From a virus (taxonomy: Duplodnaviria; Heunggongvirae; Uroviricota; Caudoviricetes), in IMG/VR virus record IMGVR_UViG_2718217859_000004, positions 1 through 38,838 of that record: a stretch of 38,838 nucleotides of DNA; one strand, given 5' to 3'. Shown in pieces: positions 196-15,040 of this stretch (its first letter is position 1; each line of letters starts with the position of its first letter). The translations under genes were made by a program, and so were the position numbers. The notes below the pieces were generated by a model. That model had not been told where the DNA came from, searched no databases, and worked only from the letters and a program-made list of their open reading frames with translations.

Positions 196-1047
196 TCAAC
201 GAGTGAATTTAAGTAACTGCTCTACGGTCATATTTTTAATTGCGCCCGGATTTACAAGAGTCCATCCCTGTTTTTCCAGATAAAAGCGGAAGGTATCCAG
301 GGTGCAGACCATTGCGCCGTCAGGAACGGTTTCAGTGAATTCGACATTGCCGAATTTGTCGAAGTGAACAACCAGAGTGCGTCCATCACCCGGAATAATT
401 TTGTCAGCGGGTGGGGTATTATTCTGACGCAGCTCTGCCTCCATGCGGTCGAACTCAGCGATGTAGGCCTCTTTGAATGCGGCGGCTTTTTTGCCGGTGA
501 AGCCCATTACCAGGAAAACGAAGCCGTTTTTTGTGATCTGATATGCGTTATAGGTATTGCCACGGTGCTCAAATTTAACCCGCGAAAAGTTGCTGGTTAA
601 AAAGCGTTCAGAACATTCGAGGGATTCTATTTTTTGAACAACGTGGTGATGTTGCTTGCCAAAGAATTCTGCGATCGCAATAGACGTAGTGACAGCGCGA
701 CCGTTTTCGATGGTTACATCAGGGTGAGAAAGGGTAGGGATAGTAGCCATGATGGCAGCCTCGATAGTCAGTTTAAATAACTCACCACCAAGGTTTTCCA
801 CGACCATAAGGGTGGTGAGACGTACAGGGGTGGAAATACCGGCGACTACCGAAACCGGCCAGCCTTGCGGCTGCCCTGCACGCCCCACCATAATCTGAAT
901 GTGGCTGTGCATTACGCATAAAAAAACCGCCTGAGCGCGGTTATGCGCGGTAATCATCATCGGGTTTCCACGCCCGGCACCCGTTTTATGAGGTGCAGGT
1001 GCACTATAATTCCACCCGTTCTGGTTTTCAATAGCTACATTCAACAT
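196..1047 (-). CDS. Rha-family phage regulatory protein / antirepressor-like
   Basis: 283-aa ORF; residues ~115-200 (VTTSIAIAEFFGKQHHHVVQKIESLECSERFL...) resemble the Rha domain. 99 stop-free codons upstream of the domain argue for the long form; an alternative start is M100 at 748-750 (GAGG upstream). Confidence 0.6.
   Translation of the reverse strand: MLNVAIENQNGWNYSAPAPHKTGAGRGNPMMITAHNRAQAVFLCVMHSHIQIMVGRAGQPQGWPVSVVAGISTPVRLTTLMVVENLGGELFKLTIEAAIMATIPTLSHPDVTIENGRAVTTSIAIAEFFGKQHHHVVQKIESLECSERFLTSNFSRVKFEHRGNTYNAYQITKNGFVFLVMGFTGKKAAAFKEAYIAEFDRMEAELRQNNTPPADKIIPGDGRTLVVHFDKFGNVEFTETVPDGAMVCTLDTFRFYLEKQGWTLVNPGAIKNMTVEQLLKFTR
918..942 (-). terminator. Intrinsic-terminator-like hairpin inside the N-terminal part of the Rha-family ORF
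   Basis: Minus strand reads AACCGC-GCTCAG-GCGGTT followed by TTTTTTT (6-bp stem, 6-nt loop, U7). Confidence 0.35.
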
Positions 1048-4080: not shown

Positions 4081-5092
4081 AAAGGTGAAAACCGGCAGTT
4101 CATCCAGTAAGTCAGTATTGACCTGGCTTGCTGATATGTGCGGTGCCGATTTGTGTGCATACCCGTCTGTATCTGCACTGGCAGAAGTAACGGAACTGAA
4201 CAAAAAGACTGTGCAGGACAGCTTACGACACCTGATGGAGATTGGGTTAATTGTTGATACCGGTGAGAGAAAAGGCCGAACAAAGCAAATTGTGGTGTAC
4301 CGACTTATCGGTGTTGAAGAAAGTGTTGCCGAGCCTGAATACCCCCAAAAACGGGGGGCTTTAAAGGTGGGTAAAATTGGTACTGTTAATAAGAACAGTA
4401 CTGAAAATGGTTATGTTTCAGCACAAAACAGACCCAAAAACGGAACTCTTAGATGCATGGAAAATAACCAAAGACACCCAAATTTTCCATCAAAGACACC
4501 CAAAAACGGATCACGGAACCCAAAGGAACCCAAAGATCTAAACCCCACACATAACTCACGCGAGAGTGCTCCGACCTGTGAGCAGGAAGTTTTGTCGTTA
4601 CAGGCTGCACCCCCTGTATTCCTGGATGGCCTGAGCGAACCCATCGGAAAATTTCCGATGACCGATAGCTGGTATCCGTCACGGGATTTTCGACGACGGG
4701 CTGCGTTGTGGGGGATAGCTTTGCCGGAGACAGAATTTACACCTGCTGAACTTGCCGCCTTCCGGGACTACTGGGCAGCGGAGGGGAAAGTGTTTACGCA
4801 GATTCAGTGGGAGCAGAAATTCGCCCGTCACGTAAATCACGTCAGGGCGCAGGTTAAACCAGTCAGCAAGGGGGTAAACCATGCAGCAGCACCAGGTGGC
4901 ACCGCATCACGGGCAGTTCAGGAAATTCGGGCAGCACGTGAGCAGTGGGAACGTGAAAACGGATTTATCAGCGACGGAAACGGCCTGGAAGCTGTGGGAA
5001 CTCATGGGGGAGGTTTATTCGAACCGCTGGACCCAGAAGAACGGGGCCGCACCTTCGAAGCTCTGGATTGCACAGATTGGCGCGATGACTGA
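4052..5092 (+). CDS. Replication initiation protein (lambda O-like, HTH / DnaT-like domain)
   Basis: ATG at 4052 with AGGAG at 4043-4047; MSIDALRWAKKVKTGSSSSKSVLTWLADMCGADLCAYPSVSALAEVTELNKKTVQDSLRHLMEIGLIVD... typical of phage replication initiators; 3' end uncertain because of overlap with the P-like ORF. Confidence 0.7.
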   Translation: MSIDALRWAKKVKTGSSSSKSVLTWLADMCGADLCAYPSVSALAEVTELNKKTVQDSLRHLMEIGLIVDTGERKGRTKQIVVYRLIGVEESVAEPEYPQKRGALKVGKIGTVNKNSTENGYVSAQNRPKNGTLRCMENNQRHPNFPSKTPKNGSRNPKEPKDLNPTHNSRESAPTCEQEVLSLQAAPPVFLDGLSEPIGKFPMTDSWYPSRDFRRRAALWGIALPETEFTPAELAAFRDYWAAEGKVFTQIQWEQKFARHVNHVRAQVKPVSKGVNHAAAPGGTASRAVQEIRAAREQWERENGFISDGNGLEAVGTHGGGLFEPLDPEERGRTFEALDCTDWRDD

Positions 5093-5546
5093 GCAGCAAA
5101 TCCGACAGGTCTGCCGCCAGTGCATGGACCGCTGCCGGGCGGGTGAAACATGGCCTCCGGACCTGGCTGAGTTTGTGGCGCTGATTTCGGAAAGCGGAGC
5201 CAATCCATTCGGTCTGACGGTGGATGCTGTGATGGAGGAGTACCGCCGCTGGCGCAATGAGTCCTGGCGATACGACGGAAGTGATAAGTACCCGTGGTCT
5301 CAGCCTGTGCTGTATCACATTTGCCTCGAGATGCGTTCAAAGGGAATTGAGCGCCAGATGACCGAAGGGGAATTAAAACGGCTTGCAGAACGGCAGCTGA
5401 CGAAATGGGCAAAGCATGTTAGTAACGGCCTGAGCGTTCCGCCAGTCCGGCGACAACTGGCGGCACCCAAACGCCCGTCGGGGCCAACGCCAATTGAGTT
5501 GCTGAAACAGGAATATGAACGCCGGAAAGCGGCTGGGTTTGTTTGA
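4881..5546 (+). CDS. Replication protein P family (helicase loader-like)
   Basis: C-terminal half aligns with recalled lambda P (ETWPPDLAEFVAL / PSPGQFVAW; YPWSQPVLYHICLEM / YPWKSNAHYWLVTNL; TEGELKRLAERQL / TDAELRRKAADEL). Strongest RBS (GGGGG) precedes ATG 4881; alternatives 5004 and 5085. Confidence 0.65.
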   Translation: MQQHQVAPHHGQFRKFGQHVSSGNVKTDLSATETAWKLWELMGEVYSNRWTQKNGAAPSKLWIAQIGAMTEQQIRQVCRQCMDRCRAGETWPPDLAEFVALISESGANPFGLTVDAVMEEYRRWRNESWRYDGSDKYPWSQPVLYHICLEMRSKGIERQMTEGELKRLAERQLTKWAKHVSNGLSVPPVRRQLAAPKRPSGPTPIELLKQEYERRKAAGFV

Positions 5547-7193: not shown

Positions 7194-7952
7194 ATGAGGA
7201 ACATAATGGCTGGTTTTTTAATATTCCTGTCTTCAGCTGCTTATGCTGATATCAATCTGTATGGTCCTGGTGGCCCGCATACAGCCTTGCTTGATGCAGC
7301 CAAACTTTATGCCGAAAAAACAGGTATTATAGTGAACGTTCATTACGGCCCACAGAACAAATGGAATGAAGATGCCAAAAAAAATGCAGATATCTTGTTT
7401 GGCGCATCAGAACAATCTGCTCTGGCTATCATTCGGGACCATAAAGACAGCTTCAGTGAAAAAGATATTCAGCCTCTTTATCTGCGAAAAAGTATTTTAC
7501 TGGTAAAGAAAGGTAATCCTAAAAATATCCGGAGTATTGACGACCTGACCAGACCCGGGATTGGCGTAATTGTTAATGATGGTGGTGGTACCAGTAATAC
7601 ATCAGGCACTGGAGTCTGGGAAGATATTGCCGGACGTAAAGGGAATATAGAAACTGTCGCCGCAATCCGAAAAAATATTATTTTATATGCACCCAATAGC
7701 GGAACTGCACGTAAGGCTCTTGAGAATCAGCCTGGAGCAGATGTCTGGATAACCTGGGCTGACTGGGCAGCCAGTAATCCAGAAATTGGTGATGTCGTGG
7801 AAATAGCGCCAGACTACGTGATATGGCGTGATATGAACATTACAGTACGTCAGGATGCAAATGATGAAACCCGTCGATTTGCAGAATGGCTACAAACCGA
7901 TGAAGCGGCGCCTGCATTCAAAAAATATGGCTGGACCAGGAAAGGCACTTGA
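7194..7952 (+). CDS. Secreted periplasmic substrate-binding protein (ModA/tungstate-binding-like fold), orphan cargo gene
   Basis: AAGGAG RBS; signal peptide MRNIMAGFLIFLSSAAYA; DINLYGPGGPHTALLDAAKLYAEKTG... similar in architecture to ModA-type binding proteins; no adjacent ABC permease/ATPase; low-GC flank. Confidence 0.7.
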   Translation: MRNIMAGFLIFLSSAAYADINLYGPGGPHTALLDAAKLYAEKTGIIVNVHYGPQNKWNEDAKKNADILFGASEQSALAIIRDHKDSFSEKDIQPLYLRKSILLVKKGNPKNIRSIDDLTRPGIGVIVNDGGGTSNTSGTGVWEDIAGRKGNIETVAAIRKNIILYAPNSGTARKALENQPGADVWITWADWAASNPEIGDVVEIAPDYVIWRDMNITVRQDANDETRRFAEWLQTDEAAPAFKKYGWTRKGT

Positions 7953-7987: not shown

Positions 7988-8234
7988 CCGGATGCCGCGC
8001 CAGCGGCATGTAGGGGCAGCTCACAAAACGGAAAAAATTGTACGCTAAGCATCGCCTATGGGAATTCCCATATCGGGCGAAAACGGTTTGCTGTAACGGC
8101 AGAGTTAAGTAGAATTGCTGCGGGTGCTTGAGGCTATCTGCCTCGGGCATGAACACCAACGGCAGATAGAGAAAAGCCCCAGTTAACATTACGCGTCCTG
8201 CAAGACGCTTAACATTAATCTGAGGCCATATCTA

Positions 8235-8438
8235 TGCGACACATAGAGATTAGCCTCTTACGGACCGAAAGGTCAAGGAGAAGCAGGCTATGAAGCAGCA
8301 AAAGGCGATGCTAATCGCCCTGATCGTCATCTGTTTAACCGTCTTAGTGACGGCACTGGTAACGAGGAAAGACCTCTGCGAGGTACGAATCCGAACCGGC
8401 CAGACGGAGGTCGCTGTCTTCACAGCTTACGAACCTGA
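8235..8438 (+). CDS. mok-like overlapping reading frame (67 codons) of the hok locus
   Basis: ATG at 8235; ORF overlaps hok in another frame and ends 7 nt before the hok stop, as mok does in hok/sok loci. Confidence 0.4.
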
Positions 8439-10328: not shown

Positions 10329-10694
10329 ATGACTGAACGCATAGAATTTGTTTTGCCTTACCCGCCGACGGTGAATACCTACTGGCGACGTCATGGCAAT
10401 ACGTATTTCATCTCGGAAGCCGGAAAGCGTTATCGCCGTGATGTGGCGCTAATTGTTCGCCAGCAGCGGCTGAAATTAAATCTGTCCGGAAGGCTGGCGA
10501 TAAAGGTTATCGCAGAGCCGCCGGATAAGCGCCGTCGTGATCTGGACAATATTCTGAAAGCACCGCTGGATGCGCTGACGCATGCGGGGCTTCTCATAGA
10601 CGACGAGCAGTTTGATGAAATCAATATTGTGCGCGGTCTGCCTGTTCCTGGTGGGCGGCTGGGCGTGAAGATTTACAAAATTGAAAGTGAGTGA
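10329..10694 (+). CDS. rusA: RusA-family Holliday junction resolvase
   Basis: FVLPYPPTVNTYWRRHG...RRRDLDNILKAPLDALTHAGLLIDDEQ matches RusA catalytic motifs (PPS.N, RRRDLDN, D.L). Confidence 0.85.
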   Translation: MTERIEFVLPYPPTVNTYWRRHGNTYFISEAGKRYRRDVALIVRQQRLKLNLSGRLAIKVIAEPPDKRRRDLDNILKAPLDALTHAGLLIDDEQFDEINIVRGLPVPGGRLGVKIYKIESE

Positions 10695-10702
10695 GCGTAA
10701 AT

Positions 10703-11239
10703 ATGATATACCCGGAAATTACAGGCAAAAGCGGTGAGCATTTACGCCTGAAAACGCTGGAAAGTGTCTGGCTCCAGGGGAAACTGCGTATGTGGGGGCG
10801 TTGGTCGTATATAGGTGGTGGCAAAACAGGAAATATGTTCAATCAGTTGCTGGCATCCAAAAAACTGACAAAAACCGCGATCAATGAAGCCATGCGCAAA
10901 ATCAGGGAATCAGGGATTGATAAACCTGAACTGGAAGCATTCTTGCGTGAGATGATCGAAGGAAAGCAAAAAAGCTGGTTAACTCACTGCACTGATGCAG
11001 AGGCACTAAAAATTGATAGTGTTATAGGTGAAGTTCTGGCGGATCATCCAGGACTACTAAATGTCCTGAGTCAGCGTTATGTGGGGCGAGGGATGAGTAA
11101 GAGAAGGATGGCCGAGTTATTAAACGAACAGTACCCAGAGTGGGCGTTGATTACATGCCGACGTCGTGTTGATCAGTGGTTGCGTGTTGCTGAGTTCATT
11201 TTGTACTCACCTATGAGAGAAGCGTTCGATTATACTTAA
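10703..11239 (+). CDS. Late-gene antiterminator, Q-like (assignment tentative)
   Basis: Position after RusA; LRMWGRWSY resembles the ERWGAW motif of Q-family proteins; followed ~100 nt downstream by an intrinsic terminator (tR'-like). Alt. GTG start 10691. Confidence 0.55.
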   Translation: MIYPEITGKSGEHLRLKTLESVWLQGKLRMWGRWSYIGGGKTGNMFNQLLASKKLTKTAINEAMRKIRESGIDKPELEAFLREMIEGKQKSWLTHCTDAEALKIDSVIGEVLADHPGLLNVLSQRYVGRGMSKRRMAELLNEQYPEWALITCRRRVDQWLRVAEFILYSPMREAFDYT

Positions 11240-11333: not shown

Positions 11334-11357
11334 AACCCGCCATTGAGCGGGTTTTTT
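11334..11357 (+). terminator. Intrinsic terminator ~95 nt downstream of the Q-like gene (tR'-like)
   Basis: ACCCGC-cattga-GCGGGT followed by TTTTTT. Confidence 0.6.
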
Positions 11358-11479: not shown

Positions 11480-12223
11480 ATGAATGAAGCCTGTTCTGTT
11501 GTTTTTGTTCATTCCCCGTTTGTTGTGCTCTTTGAAGGAAAAGAGCTCTCTCTTGAAAGTGGTAGTGCACTTCTTGTCAGGGGGGGAGCTGGATCGTTAT
11601 TGCCCTTTTCGGAATGTTTTCGGCGAATAAGTCTCAGTGAATCGACAATTAGCCGTTACCTGTTGTGTGGAGACGAAAAACAGGATGTAGTTTTAGTCCG
11701 GCAAATACCACGATATCTTTGCGTGAGTTTTCCCAAGGCAGAATTGATGGGCATCCTGATTGATTATCTTTGTGAGGAAAAGATTCATACGGACAATTTA
11801 GCGGAAATGCTTTCCTTTTCGTGTCTGGCGTTTTTCTCATCAGAGAAAATGTTTTCGTCGTTTCTGACCGCGTGTATTAGCAATATTAGTGACAGGCTTA
11901 GTGCATTGTTTCGTACGGACATTGCAGCAAACTGGACTCTGAGAGATGTGTCTTCGCGGTTATGTATCAGTGAAAGTTTGTTAAAAAAAAGACTGAAAGA
12001 AGAAGGCACCTGTTTCAGTGAGTTGTTGCTTACAGAGAGAATGAGAATGGCAGCAATGCTGTTGAATCAATCTCGTTGCGCCATCAACAGAATCGCTGCC
12101 CAGTGCGGCTATAATTTTACATCTTATTTTATCAGCGTATTCAGGAGTTATTTTGGTGTTACACCGGCAGGTTACAGGATGGCTGCATTCAATGAGATGA
12201 GTTTAAGTGTTACTCAAGAATAA
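11480..12223 (+). CDS. AraC-family transcriptional regulator, AppY-like (cargo gene)
   Basis: C-terminal AraC HTH (LKKRLKEEGTCFSELLLTERMRMAAMLLNQSRCAINRIAAQCGYNFTSYFISVFRSYFGVTPAGY) and N-terminus EACSVVFVHSPF resemble AppY/EnvY-type regulators; AT-rich gene. Confidence 0.8.
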   Translation: MNEACSVVFVHSPFVVLFEGKELSLESGSALLVRGGAGSLLPFSECFRRISLSESTISRYLLCGDEKQDVVLVRQIPRYLCVSFPKAELMGILIDYLCEEKIHTDNLAEMLSFSCLAFFSSEKMFSSFLTACISNISDRLSALFRTDIAANWTLRDVSSRLCISESLLKKRLKEEGTCFSELLLTERMRMAAMLLNQSRCAINRIAAQCGYNFTSYFISVFRSYFGVTPAGYRMAAFNEMSLSVTQE

Positions 12224-12247: not shown

Positions 12248-12271
12248 AGGCTCGCTGCGGCGGGCCTTTTT
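12248..12271 (+). terminator. Intrinsic terminator after the AppY-like gene
   Basis: AGGCTCGC-tgcg-GCGGGCCT (one G-U pair) followed by TTTTT. Confidence 0.55.
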
Positions 12272-12408
12272 CATATCCGCGCCACGCCCGGCGCATATCA
12301 AAAACCACAGAGCCTTTCAGGGGTGAGCTTACGGGATGGTCAGTGTGACTTTCTCTGTGGGCTGGTCACCCCCGGGCGCAGGCTCACCCACTAAAAGGAA
12401 AAGTCACG

Positions 12409-12834
12409 ATGTTTGGTATTTTCAAAAAGAAAACCCGCAAGGCCATTACTGAAGTGAAGAAGATGGAGAATCGCGATGCAGTGGAGGCGACCGTCTGGGG
12501 CGCGTATTCCATTGCATATGCTGACGGCACCTGTGACGCGAAAGAAATCGCGGTACTGGAGAAAACCATTGCAGCACTTCCTGCCTTTGCGCTGTTCTCG
12601 GGTGAGATTGCACAAATGAGTGCAAATATCCGCGCCCGTTATGAAGCATCGCCGCGTTCTGCCAATGCCGAAGCCCTCCGCCAGCTGGCTGATGTTGCCG
12701 GTACTGATGACGCTGTTAATGTGCTGTGCCTGTGTCTGGATATCGCTGACCAGGATGGTATTGGTCCGGATGAAGAAGCACAGCTCAAGAAAATTGCTCA
12801 GGCACTGCAGTTACCACTGGAGCAGTACCTGTGA
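12409..12834 (+). CDS. TerB-like (tellurite-resistance TerB domain) protein
   Basis: 141 aa, two DG-x-E-containing helices (YADGTCDAKEIAVLEKTIAAL; DQDGIGPDEEAQLKKIAQAL) typical of the TerB fold; AAGGA RBS. Confidence 0.55.
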   Translation: MFGIFKKKTRKAITEVKKMENRDAVEATVWGAYSIAYADGTCDAKEIAVLEKTIAALPAFALFSGEIAQMSANIRARYEASPRSANAEALRQLADVAGTDDAVNVLCLCLDIADQDGIGPDEEAQLKKIAQALQLPLEQYL

Positions 12835-12989
12835 AAAGTGCGCGTCTTGTGCTGGCTGCCATCCTGCTGTTTCTGGTAGTGGTGGTGGATTTTACCGGAC
12901 GGCTGATGTCGGTACTGGCAGATGGTGTGCTGGTGGCGATGGCGCTGGTCGTGCTCCGGCCTTTATTCCGGAGCAAAAACAACGGCTGA
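12831..12989 (+). CDS. Small membrane peptide (52 aa, two predicted TM helices), coupled to the TerB-like gene
   Basis: GTG overlapping TerB-like stop (GTGA); VKSARLVLAAILLFLVVVVDFTGRLMSVLADGVLVAMALVVLRPLFRSKNNG; below ORF-track cutoff. Confidence 0.35.
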   Translation: MKSARLVLAAILLFLVVVVDFTGRLMSVLADGVLVAMALVVLRPLFRSKNNG

Positions 12990-12996
12990 TTATTTG

Positions 12997-13025
12997 AGCG
13001 GGCATTTAAAGCCCGCTGCATTTTT
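12997..13025. terminator. Hairpin plus T-run between convergent genes
   Basis: AGCGGGC-atttaaa-GCCCGCT followed by GCATTTTTATT; lies between the + strand TerB/peptide pair and the minus-strand zinc-ribbon gene. Confidence 0.55.
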
Positions 13026-13704
13026 ATTGCTGCTGTTCCTTAATGCGTTCCGGTAGCACAAATGCCACTTCAAGGAACAACCGGAGAAACGCCACAAACT
13101 CTTTTGCCTGCTCATCACTGGCCTCGAGTTCGTGCACGGCTTCATTTCCTTCCATACGGATTCGGTGAGCCCAGTTTCTCATTGATTCCGTCAGTATGCC
13201 GTCCTGCCGTGCCACTTCAATGCGTGACAGCAGATTGCCTTTTTCGTACCCCAGGGCACGGAGGGCAACCTCGAGGACGCTACGGCAGCCAACAATAATA
13301 CGCGGGGCAGTTCTGCCGGACCGAACATCCTCCTGCAACTCAGTGAAGACTGCGCGAATTTTTTCGGGATAGTGGGGGGAGTCATCGGGCAGCCTGAGTT
13401 CAGGATAGATTTTGATGCTCCCCTCAAGTGGAGCATTCAGCACCCAGGCTTTGTTGTTGATGGCTTTTTTCATGTCCACCAGTTCACTGACTGAACATTC
13501 GAATGCGATCATTAATGGGTTGTTGCATTCTGTGCAAAAGTCCGTTGAGTATGCTTTTGCTGATGTTATTTCAGAGGTACGCGGTTGTTGCATGTAAAGC
13601 TTGTTTTCTGTAGCCGGACGCCTGCTGTGGTACTGGGTGACCTCATTCAGAGAAATATGAACCTGATGAAGGCAGTACGGGCATTTAATTTTCAGGGAGT
13701 ACAT
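13024..13704 (-). CDS. Zinc-ribbon protein with DUF4145/HEPN-like C-terminal domain (candidate abortive-infection/defence protein)
   Basis: Start 13702-13704 with GAAGAGG upstream (ORF extends to 13893); N-terminal CPYC...CTEC zinc ribbon; C-terminus IIVGCRSVLEVALRAL...MRNWAHRIRMEGNEAVHELEA with an R-x7-H motif in an all-helical region. Domain call from memory, unverified. Confidence 0.5.
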   Translation of the reverse strand: MYSLKIKCPYCLHQVHISLNEVTQYHSRRPATENKLYMQQPRTSEITSAKAYSTDFCTECNNPLMIAFECSVSELVDMKKAINNKAWVLNAPLEGSIKIYPELRLPDDSPHYPEKIRAVFTELQEDVRSGRTAPRIIVGCRSVLEVALRALGYEKGNLLSRIEVARQDGILTESMRNWAHRIRMEGNEAVHELEASDEQAKEFVAFLRLFLEVAFVLPERIKEQQQ

Positions 13705-13962
13705 ATGACCTCTTCGACAGAAGTGATAACTGAATTTGAAAATTGCATAGCAGATTCTGCCAGTGATTCTGTAGCAGCGATAGAACGAAGGTTTGCTGCT
13801 GCTCAGACCCGGTATGGTCATGATGCAGCCGTCAAGGGGCTGGCAATGGCGTTTGTTATTGCAGAGAACCGCCGTCGCTTTATTGAAGCGCAAATGACAC
13901 TAAAGCAATAAATAGCACCACACAAAAGGCATCTGAGGGTGCCTTTGACGGGGTGTTTTTAT

Positions 13963-13988
13963 GGGCCACTGGAGGCCCTTTTTTATTT
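13963..13988 (+). terminator. Terminator-like hairpin immediately upstream of the holin gene
   Basis: GGGCC-actgga-GGCCC followed by TTTTTTATTT; holin RBS starts 3 nt later. Confidence 0.5.
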
Positions 13989-14002
13989 ACAGGAGAAAAA
14001 GT

Positions 14003-14395
14003 ATGTCTGAACCCTTATCCGGTTCCGGCACGGCTGCGGCGCTCGGCGGGGCGACGGTATTCGGGCTGTTTACCGGAACGGATTTCGGGATTGTGTTTGG
14101 TGCGTTCGCCGGGGCGTTATTTGTGGCAACGATGCCGCAGGCGCTTTCAGCCTGGCGGGTGGCGGCGCATTTTCTGGTGTCGTTCATTGTCGGCGTGCTG
14201 GGAGCGCGTGTGCTGTCTGCCTGGATAGCGGCAAAAACAGGTTATGACGGCACATCGGCAGATGCGCTGTGTGCGGTGCTGGTATCGGTGGTGTCGGTAA
14301 AGATTCTGTCGTTCATCCACCAGCAGGATATCGCATCACTGGTGTCCGGCCTGTTCTCCCGCCTGCGGGGTGGAGGAGGCGGCAATGTTAAGTAA
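14003..14395 (+). CDS. Phage holin (multi-TM)
   Basis: AGGAG RBS; 130 aa with Gly/Ala-rich hydrophobic segments (GGATVFGLFTGTDFGIVFGAFAGALFVA...); first gene of the lysis cassette. Confidence 0.7.
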   Translation: MSEPLSGSGTAAALGGATVFGLFTGTDFGIVFGAFAGALFVATMPQALSAWRVAAHFLVSFIVGVLGARVLSAWIAAKTGYDGTSADALCAVLVSVVSVKILSFIHQQDIASLVSGLFSRLRGGGGGNVK

Positions 14396-14660
14396 CCTTC
14401 CCGGATTGCTGAATGTGGCGTTATGCACGGTTATCGTGCTGACGCTCTTTTTTTATCGTCGCCGTGATTCCAGACATAAACCGCTGATGTCATGGCTGGC
14501 CTGGCTGCTGATGCTGTTGTATGCCTTTGCGCCACTCAGCTACCTGTGTGGTCGTCCGTTAGCGGCGAACTGGCTGGCGGTGGGGCTTAATCTGCTGTTC
14601 TGCGTGCTGGTGATTCGTGCACGTGGGAACGTTTCAAAAATCCTTTCATTACGGAGGTGA
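14385..14660 (+). CDS. Second lysis-associated membrane protein (holin/antiholin-like)
   Basis: ATG 14385 after GGAGGAGG, overlapping holin stop; 91 aa with hydrophobic helices. Confidence 0.55.
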   Translation: MLSNLPGLLNVALCTVIVLTLFFYRRRDSRHKPLMSWLAWLLMLLYAFAPLSYLCGRPLAANWLAVGLNLLFCVLVIRARGNVSKILSLRR

Positions 14661-14662
14661 GT

Positions 14663-15040
14663 ATGTCGGGTAAATTCAGATTCAGCCGTCGGAGCGAGAA
14701 AAATCTGGAGGGCGTAAAACCACAGCTGGTTGCTGTCGTTCGCCGTGCGCTGGAGCTGACGGAGGTTGATTTCGGTATTACGGAAGGTCTGCGCACGAAA
14801 GAGCGCCAGAAACAACTGGTTGCAGAAGGCAAGAGCCAGACCATGAACAGCCGCCACCTGACCGGTGATGCGGTGGATGTTGTTGCCTGGGTTGGCAGCC
14901 AGGTGTCATGGGACTGGCCTCTGTACGAGAAAATCGCGCAGGCATTTAAGCAGGCCGCTACAGAGCTGGGAATCGCCATCGAATGGGGCGGGGACTGGAA
15001 AACGTTGAAGGACGGGCCTCACTTTCAGTTGAAACGATAA
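14663..15040 (+). CDS. Endolysin, peptidase M15 (D-Ala-D-Ala carboxypeptidase-like) family
   Basis: GGAGG 5 nt upstream; ...LVAEGKSQTMNSRHLTGDAVDVVAW...EWGGDW...DGPHFQL with zinc-ligand-like H/D/H residues typical of M15 endolysins. Confidence 0.8.
   Translation: MSGKFRFSRRSEKNLEGVKPQLVAVVRRALELTEVDFGITEGLRTKERQKQLVAEGKSQTMNSRHLTGDAVDVVAWVGSQVSWDWPLYEKIAQAFKQAATELGIAIEWGGDWKTLKDGPHFQLKR

Follow-up and report, generated by a model that had tools for sequence, protein, structure and literature searches.

The record of phage P1 annotates an operon of three genes, tciA-tciB-tciC (P1_gp074-076), and that of JLK-2012 places two of them in the order Q - tRNAs - tciA - tciB - nanS-like gene - S - R, as do stx-negative 933W-like prophages in a comparable layout (tRNAs - TerB family - DUF3927 - nanS-p). 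Published work treats tciABC of P1-like phage-plasmids as well as tciA of an N4-like phage, and states the function to be unknown. TerB proteins are also part of the terZABCDE(F) clusters, in which TerB is membrane-associated on the inner side and an interaction partner of TerC (Alekhina 2011 and Turkovicova 2016, as cited), and these clusters have been linked to phage inhibition and resistance to pore-forming colicins (Whelan 1995/1997, as cited). Stand-alone TerB proteins of Erwinia jumbo phages have been proposed to act against superinfecting phages (Iyer, Aravind et al., PMC7824862), and the Bunzi and Shango anti-phage systems combine a TerB domain with membrane association, for which membrane surveillance has been proposed. 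Here we analyse IMG/VR record IMGVR_UViG_2718217859_000004 (38,838 nucleotides (nt), hereafter the window), which lies within a lambdoid prophage and matches the chromosome of E. coli strain 08-00022 (NZ_CP013662.1) at 100% identity. Its subject is a TerB-like gene overlapping a gene for a 52-residue hydrophobic peptide. The pair is the phage tciA-tciB module, already annotated and hence not new. What this analysis adds is that the module spans temperate and virulent phages, and that an undescribed, apparently structured leader lies upstream of tciA. The elements concerned are the following.

12248-12267, plus strand: upstream terminator-like hairpin and T-run, 8-bp stem with six GC pairs and a TTTTTCAT tail
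12277-12408, plus strand: conserved, apparently structured 5' leader of tciA, recognised by conservation and covariation
12409-12834, plus strand: tciA open reading frame (ORF), ATG start, 141 residues, predicted TerB-like cytoplasmic protein
12831-12989, plus strand: tciB ORF, GTG start, 52 residues, DUF3927, putatively coupled in translation to tciA
12997-13017, plus strand: downstream terminator-like hairpin and T-run, 7-bp stem with six GC pairs and a GCATTTTTAT tail

The original prediction had both ORFs at the correct coordinates but regarded the pair as an undescribed system, which it is not, because tciA and tciB are annotated in P1 and JLK-2012, held as families 632 and 1470 in PHROGs, named by RefSeq in the source genome itself and discussed in the literature. 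Calling the pair a new system would repeat a 2004 annotation. TciA of P1 is 85% identical to that of the window at the protein level and 79% at the DNA level, and it is followed in the same gene order by the same DUF3927 / PHROG 1470 TciB with an overlapping stop and start. The two differ in that the window lacks tciC and has a terminator directly after tciB, that the P1 genes belong to the C1-controlled ban operon whereas those of the window lie in a late region between Q and the holins, and that P1 lacks the conserved leader. No ORF similar to tciC (a 35-residue single-helix peptide) is present in the window, where the terminator begins 8 nt past the tciB stop. The JLK-2012, Klebsiella and N4-like copies have no tciC either, so it is not defining for the wider module. 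JLK-2012 and the 933W-like prophages share the Q-holin position, a leader that is 87% identical and a tciB that follows by a GTGA overlap, but they carry a 143-residue TciA variant of 42% identity and have tRNA genes upstream. There are no tRNA genes in the window, though relatives carry them beside tciA.

TciA is a TerB-like protein, as judged from its Pfam match and its predicted fold. It matches Pfam TerB (PF05099) at 31.9 bits against a cut-off of 24.4, with an alignment over residues 11-57 only, while relatives of 35-41% identity match the full-length profile at 40-65 bits. The match to PHROG 632 ('tellurite resistance') runs from end to end (E=2.8e-64), and NCBIfam gives only a sub-threshold DjlA match for the pair. 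An AlphaFold model built with 24 homologues has six helices (predicted local distance difference test score, pLDDT, 86.6; predicted template modelling score, pTM, 0.82), and its best structural matches are the TerB-like structures 2h5n and 2ou3. The predicted protein is thus all-helical and carries paired acidic (A)DG...E motifs. These are the paired D-G-x-E motifs that had been read from the sequence beforehand, YADGTCDAKE and ADQDGIGPDEE, in which D39, G40, E46, D114 and G117 are invariant among 24-25 homologues. The N-terminus MFGIFKKKTRK, hydrophobic and then polybasic, is retained even in distant relatives. A Shine-Dalgarno sequence AAGGA lies at 12395-12399, 9 nt before the ATG. As a separate observation, three cysteines (C42, C107 and C109, encoded at 12532-12534, 12727-12729 and 12733-12735) are invariant in the enterobacterial TciA subfamily and absent from JLK-type, Erwinia and Pseudomonas relatives; they may make up a thiol or metal site peculiar to that subfamily.

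TciB was predicted to be a strongly hydrophobic peptide with two membrane segments, and this was borne out. It matches DUF3927 (PF13064) at 52.4 bits (cut-off 25, E=5e-14) and PHROG 1470 ('TciB-like') at E=7e-24. Two hydrophobic segments (residues ~6-19 and ~25-42) are joined by a short DFTGR loop; Kyte-Doolittle hydropathy (11-residue window) peaks at 3.5 within residues 6-19 and at 3.0 within residues 32-42. Basic residues stand at both ends (K2 and R5; R43, R47 and K49), and by the positive-inside rule TciB is probably a two-helix inner-membrane hairpin with both ends in the cytoplasm. The GTG start overlaps the TGA stop of tciA as GTGA (cctGTGAaa), with GGAG 8 nt before it. Among 82 loci compared, tciB follows tciA directly in 81 and the GTGA overlap is found in 80. 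The form of the junction differs by lineage (GTGA, TGATG in P1, TAATG) yet the overlap is kept, which supports the translational coupling proposed for the pair. A motif VDFT(G/S)xxxSVxxDG is shared by TciB across relatives. In the exception (locus L046, with the rearranged tciB locus at 4423-5424) a rearrangement leaves only the first 16 codons of tciB, now joined to a large unrelated ORF, and tciA is intact. Two minor observations concern gene calls: a 196-residue protein in one assembly (P0052) is a P1-type TciA-TciB fusion ORF arising from a frameshift at the junction, and at loci L104 and L105 tciB is called and tciA is not.

Few accessory modules of enterobacterial phages are as widespread as this one. 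Of 5426 complete E. coli genomes, 391 contain DNA similar to tciA, as do 669 plasmid records (most of them non-mobilizable and of the size of P1-like or Klebsiella phage-plasmids) and 406 viral contigs, and several tciA-type copies are found per genome of Shiga toxin-producing E. coli (STEC). As a protein family TciA is narrow, with 173 clusters (50% identity) at E<=0.001 among 1.84 billion representative proteins. The adjacency of tciA and tciB is kept at 58%, 43%, 41%, 40% and 38% TciA identity. The backbones include Klebsiella phage-plasmids (TAATG junction, 1-nt overlap), another temperate backbone (TciA 58% identical), the N4-like Salmonella phage SP-076 (~67%), Erwinia jumbo phages (41-45%) and Pseudomonas Nickievirus phages (~40%), of which SP-076, the Erwinia phages and the Nickievirus phages are virulent. 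A custom TciB profile recognises the small ORFs 3' of the Erwinia and Pseudomonas tciA genes at 21-27 bits, and metagenomic phage contigs with TciA of 38-41% identity hold a TciB-like ORF that the gene finder had not called. tciA is under strong purifying selection (ratio of nonsynonymous to synonymous substitution rates, dN/dS, 0.06), and constraint on tciB is weaker and frame-specific (0.46 vs 0.83-0.88 in the other two frames); many of the loci are closely related E. coli prophages. In several unrelated phages tciA-type genes adjoin phage tRNA genes (L001, L095, L092/L112-L114, the Pseudomonas phage locus L093, L115/L116): tRNA-Asn and tRNA-Thr lie upstream in both P1 (L001) and JLK-2012 (L095), tRNA-Trp and tRNA-Cys near tciA in the Erwinia phages (L092/L112-L114), and Ile/Arg/Arg tRNAs in 933W-like prophages, at the stx position of Stx phages. 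One record, PP818812.1 (Actinobacillus phage vB_Apl-pPE4), has a leader and a tciA that are 95-99% identical to those of E. coli prophages, which makes its host attribution odd.

We regard the gene pair as of modest interest and the leader as of higher interest. The 132 nt directly 5' of the tciA ATG, after the upstream terminator, are nearly invariant among loci that differ in their tciA alleles and in the genes further upstream. Compared with the window, the leader shows 97.2% identity across 66 haplotypes; in the same haplotypes the third codon positions of tciA are 82.6% identical and the first and second positions 98-99%. Even where the TciA encoded downstream has dropped to 41-45% identity, the leader keeps 71-98% nt identity. 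It is 87% identical in JLK-2012 and 79% in phage Evi (TciA 42-43%), 83-85% in Klebsiella phages and 71-73% in the Erwinia jumbo phages (TciA 41-45%). None of the 4227 families of Rfam 15 matches within the window's leader at gathering thresholds; a scan at E<=10 gave chance-level matches only (E>=3.8) within 12277-12408, and the best scan matches (E 0.2-0.4) fall on the upstream terminator hairpin, outside the leader.

Comparison of the leader copies supports a model of five helices, all on the plus strand.

12279-12283 with 12290-12294: helix P1, a hairpin
12305-12312 with 12353-12360: helix P2, which crosses H5 and P4 and so makes the predicted fold a pseudoknot
12321-12328 with 12382-12389: helix H5, GGGTGAGC:GCTCACCC
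12333-12337 with 12368-12372: helix P4
12338-12342 with 12346-12350: helix P3

In this model 96.9% of cells are paired, falling to 35-48% when the partners are slid by 1-3 columns. Ten pairs are changed on both sides, compared with 3.9±1.2 in shuffles and with 0 of 500 shuffles reaching 10, a control that related sequences can exceed without real structure; moreover, the alignment was fitted to helices P1, P2 and P3, so that their counts lean towards that structure. A sequence-only alignment provides an independent check and gives the same result for helices P1 and P2. In P1 the pairing GCGCC/GGCGC becomes CTGTC/GACAG or ACATC/GATGT, and in P2 CCACAGAG:CTCTGTGG becomes CCGTAGAG:CTCTACGG in Erwinia and CCATGGAG:CTCCATGG in L162; such compensatory double changes in both helices are seen in lineages outside the training of the covariance model. 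That model, R1, was built from 14 non-Erwinia leader sequences. It recovers every tciA-upstream leader copy at 137-164 bits, scores the window's leader at 154.9 bits and finds the untrained Erwinia copies at 58-66 bits. H5 is invariant within the covariation alignment set, and one P4 pair is an A·C mismatch in the window's own leader subtype. From this comparative evidence the leader is apparently a conserved, folded, pseudoknot-like RNA.

Several other readings of the leader were considered. A nested fold from RNAalifold (GAGCC:GGCTC plus G-run:CAYYCC) was not adopted because it is incompatible with the covarying P2 and its 3' strand has a covarying alternative partner in P4; apart from P1 and P3, a single pair in it is changed on both sides, and it may represent an alternative conformer. 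A small ORF is unlikely, since the ATG at 12336 is absent from Klebsiella-type and Erwinia copies and no ORF is conserved, and so is a promoter, the leader being GC-rich and without a sigma-70-like match. The prophage encodes a C4 antisense RNA beside an IsrK-like RNA (808-895 and 920-996, minus strand), but the leader is not clearly a target of either, as by duplex energies a shuffled leader was as good in 56/300 and 108/300 trials, and an 8-nt complementarity between leader and prophage RNA (CAGGGGUG/CACCCCUG) is within chance. It is speculation that the invariant CCUUUC pairs with the Shine-Dalgarno AAAGG as a simple translation control. Two further observations concern individual copies. 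The G-run after CCTTTCA (12320-12323 in the window) ranges from 4 to at least 11 G among near-identical leaders (Evi L109, L199, L156, L207), which could be slipped-strand variation or sequencing error. In PPompW-type prophages (LC567818-LC567841, H206-H216) only the first ~50 nt of the leader match, where an IS110-family element, ISEc20, is annotated, which suggests that ISEc20 was inserted into the leader.

Pseudoknotted translational operators are known 5' of T4 gene 32 and in the S15 and S4 ribosomal protein operons, and riboswitches are further folded elements of mRNA leaders. The tciA leader resembles the pseudoknotted operators in that the predicted folded element ends at the Shine-Dalgarno sequence at a fixed distance from the start codon and one helix crosses a long hairpin. 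It differs in having no Rfam match and in that diverged copies precede unrelated antirepressor genes. Leader sequences were not found upstream of tciA in P1 (no R1 match, L001), in Klebsiella phage-plasmids or in N4-like and Pseudomonas phages. An exact leader core is present in five GTDB species-representative genomes (Pseudocitrobacter, Citrobacter braakii, Pantoea septica, Leclercia and a Proteobacteria metagenome-assembled genome), all five with tciA and then a tciB-like ORF downstream. Elsewhere in some prophages we found diverged leader copies with the same layout, at R1 scores of 32-55 bits.

L038, 6098-6233: diverged leader copy
L199, 10765-10900: diverged leader copy
L127, 96-210, minus strand: diverged leader copy
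L174, 3700-3815: diverged leader copy
L152, 2186-2297, minus strand: diverged leader copy

These copies show covarying P2 variants (GAAAG:CTTTC, GAGAG:CTCTC and CAGAGA:TCTCTG) and end in CTAAAAGGAA-N7-9-ATG. Two of them precede antirepressor genes (ANT/KilAC and P22_AR_N); the other three precede ORFs without a Pfam match or a short ORF only. This suggests that the leader is a family and not a tciA-specific element, and because the copies precede other genes, antirepressors included, a general role in controlling the expression of phage accessory genes is favoured over a sensor of TciA's chemistry. Supported by covariation, without an Rfam entry and found also 5' of antirepressor genes, the leader could represent a cis-regulatory class of late phage transcripts that is new, and it might give practical access to the questions of when tciAB is expressed and for what purpose.

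The setting of the pair bears on when it would be transcribed. As predicted, it lies between a Q-like antiterminator and the holins and is flanked by terminators.

10691-11239, plus strand: Q-like late antiterminator (DUF1133 / Phage_antitermQ), from profile matches
11334-11353, plus strand: strong terminator-like hairpin ~95 nt past the Q stop, at the lambdoid tR' position
13961-14395 and 14370-14660, plus strand: holins (holin_8 and holin_3_7), from domain matches
13961-15040, plus strand: lysis cassette (holin_8, holin_3_7 and M15 endolysin), from domain matches

The gene order 5' of the pair is DUF968, RusA, the Q-like gene and an AraC/YdeO-like regulator, and 3' of it an opposite-strand DUF4145 gene, the two holins and the M15 endolysin. 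The upstream hairpin sits right after the AraC-like gene and right before the leader, and a terminator also precedes the leader in most related loci. The hairpin at 11334-11353 would fit the lambdoid pR'-tR' layout, in which a TTGCAA-N17-TTCAAT sequence, read by eye, is a candidate promoter. Its tR'-like position would therefore place the AraC-like gene, tciAB and the lysis genes in one Q-dependent late unit. The distance from the end of tciB to the holin gene is 90-110 nt in most lambdoid relatives, and the relatives' pairs lie behind three antiterminator families and before two different, unrelated lysis cassettes. In P1, tciA lies downstream of the C1-controlled Pban with no annotated plus-strand promoter between the two, and tciA/B/C transcripts change during lytic infection by P1vir.

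Our best overall explanation, which we hold tentatively, is that TciAB conditions or guards the infected cell's inner membrane as part of the phage lytic programme. tciA would supply a soluble TerB-fold protein and the coupled tciB a two-helix inner-membrane hairpin of ~50 residues, with coupled translation ensuring that both are made together. TciB and TciA's own MFGIFKKKTRK motif may keep the TerB-like domain docked to the inner membrane on its cytoplasmic side, where TciB would stand in for TerC in a minimal TerB-TerC pairing, by analogy with the ter clusters. Transcription would belong to the lytic or late programme, by Q-dependent read-through of the flanking terminators here and within the C1-repressed ban operon in P1, and translation, whose start is embedded in the pseudoknot-like leader, would probably be controlled by it. 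During phage growth the complex might then guard or survey the inner membrane; the insults countered could be membrane-depolarising ones such as pore-forming colicins, superinfecting phages or abortive-infection effectors, of the kind with which ter clusters have long been associated. Tellurite detoxification is a less likely role.

TciA resembles the TerB of terZABCDE(F) in its predicted fold and its paired acidic ADG...E motifs, and by analogy it would be cytoplasmic and act together with a membrane partner at the inner membrane. In contrast to those clusters, TerZ, TerA, TerC, TerD and TerE are not among the neighbours of tciAB in the window, the multi-pass TerC has a 52-residue hairpin in its place, and the Pfam match is partial. 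Bunzi and Shango likewise pair a TerB domain with the membrane, but tciAB lacks a helicase, ATPase or lipid-binding partner, has no PADLOC match and is borne by phages, virulent ones included. A broader joint reading, possible but doubtful in our view, is a three-part module of leader RNA, tciA and tciB, in which the leader represents an undescribed pseudoknotted family gating the translation of accessory genes (tciAB and, for the diverged copies, antirepressors) through a ligand, metal or protein, and TciAB is a minimal Ter-type membrane-protection device of temperate and virulent phages.

Of the other explanations, one that we consider unlikely is a lysogenic-conversion moron, expressed from its own promoter in the lysogen and protecting the host from tellurite or oxidative stress, from colicins or from other phages. 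The pair had indeed been described as flanked by terminators in the manner of an autonomous moron, and the terminators are on both flanks. The position is moreover a variable cargo site also used by stx, AraC-like regulators and methylases, ter clusters confer phenotypes of this kind, a review suggests host protection, and STEC genomes hold several tciA-type copies. However, no sigma-70-like promoter was found in 12268-12408 at the threshold of a consensus scan, which a weak or non-sigma-70 promoter may escape. The DNA between terminator and tciA is instead the GC-rich structured leader, the P1 copy lies within a C1-repressed operon, and the unit here appears to lie within the Q-dependent late unit; hence the autonomous part of the earlier claim is not supported. 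The module is also found in strictly virulent phages, in which lysogenic conversion is impossible; this argues against tellurite resistance for the host and redirects attention towards lytic-cycle phenotypes. Three observations favour a function in lytic growth over an autonomous lysogenic moron: the spread into virulent phages, the location in the ban operon of P1 and that in the late operon here.

A role in lytic growth could also mean that TciAB acts on the holin pathway, as a stabiliser of the proton-motive force or in an antiholin-like manner, and prevents early lysis. The short distance of 90-110 nt between tciB and the holin in most lambdoid relatives, kept with two unrelated lysis cassettes, would suit such a modulator of lysis timing or membrane energisation, as would co-transcription with late genes and a small membrane hairpin like many holin and antiholin partners. 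We nevertheless consider it improbable, given that the pair lies away from the lysis genes in P1 and in N4-like, Erwinia and Pseudomonas phages, that the opposite-strand DUF4145 gene separates it from the holin in the window and that there is no similarity to known holin or antiholin families. Very improbable is a small membrane toxin with its regulator, in which TciB perturbs the membrane or blocks division, TciA restrains or directs it and host growth is arrested. 'Inhibition of cell division' is part of the tci name in the wording of the P1 annotation, and in a transcriptome study of P1vir tciA/B/C are placed together with icd and kilA, which control cell division. Peptides this small and hydrophobic often prove toxic, and ter operons have been linked to filamentation (PMC4633105). 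The grouping with icd and kilA rests only on homology, however, tciB is under relaxed constraint (dN/dS 0.46) compared with the strongly constrained TciA (0.06), and in L046 tciB is truncated while tciA is intact. That the 52-residue ORF arose by chance and the leader is conserved through recent shared ancestry or as a recombination junction is hardly credible: tciB is short and hydrophobic, many loci come from closely related E. coli prophages and related sequences can beat the pair-count shuffle control without real structure, but tciB homologues with VDFT(G/S)xxxSVxxDG after TciA of only 38-43% identity contradict a chance tciB, the leader keeps 71-87% nt identity where the adjacent protein is 41-45% identical, compensatory double changes in P1 and P2 occur in lineages outside model building, and slid-partner controls reach 35-48% paired vs 96.9% for the proposed structure.

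Several points weigh against the membrane-guarding role in the lytic programme that we prefer, or against parts of it. The Pfam TerB match of TciA is partial (residues 11-57), and a sequence search of TciA against PDB chains returned chance matches only. The tci names in P1 were assigned 'by homology' and may go back to plasmid pMip233, and we found no experiment on any phage tciAB in the literature. A CRISPR interference screen in P1 found tciA, tciB and tciC to be non-essential for plaque formation, and about half of one P1 subgroup has lost the tci operon. Neither TciA nor TciB matches any model in PADLOC-DB v2 (E<=0.1). A weak promoter active in the lysogen is still compatible with the consensus scan. 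A universal pairing has to be rejected, as two TciA-like loci (L091 and L096, 35-40% identity) have no detectable TciB-like ORF; the tciA-tciB link is strong, not absolute.

The neighbouring genes of the window deserve brief mention. The AraC-family regulator between Q and tciA (11480-12223, plus strand; longest ORF from 11327) is closest to YdeO/GadX-type acid-resistance regulators, at 147.5 bits well below the cut-off of 348, and the same AraC gene family fills the Q-tciA slot in other prophages. The DUF4145 gene between tciB and the holin (13024-13893, minus strand) is not present in most relatives. RefSeq calls only 489 nt of it, and its PHROG 1305 match begins at residue 63 of the 289-residue ORF; a Cys-rich CPYC...CTEC region lies upstream in the ORF, and the true start may be near 13704. 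It has a weak match to the PADLOC defence model PD-T7-4 (E=3.8e-4). Other cargo of the prophage comprises two loci.

7194-7952, plus strand: Paa (AcfC-family) adhesin gene
8122-8292, plus strand: hokD/sok toxin-antitoxin locus

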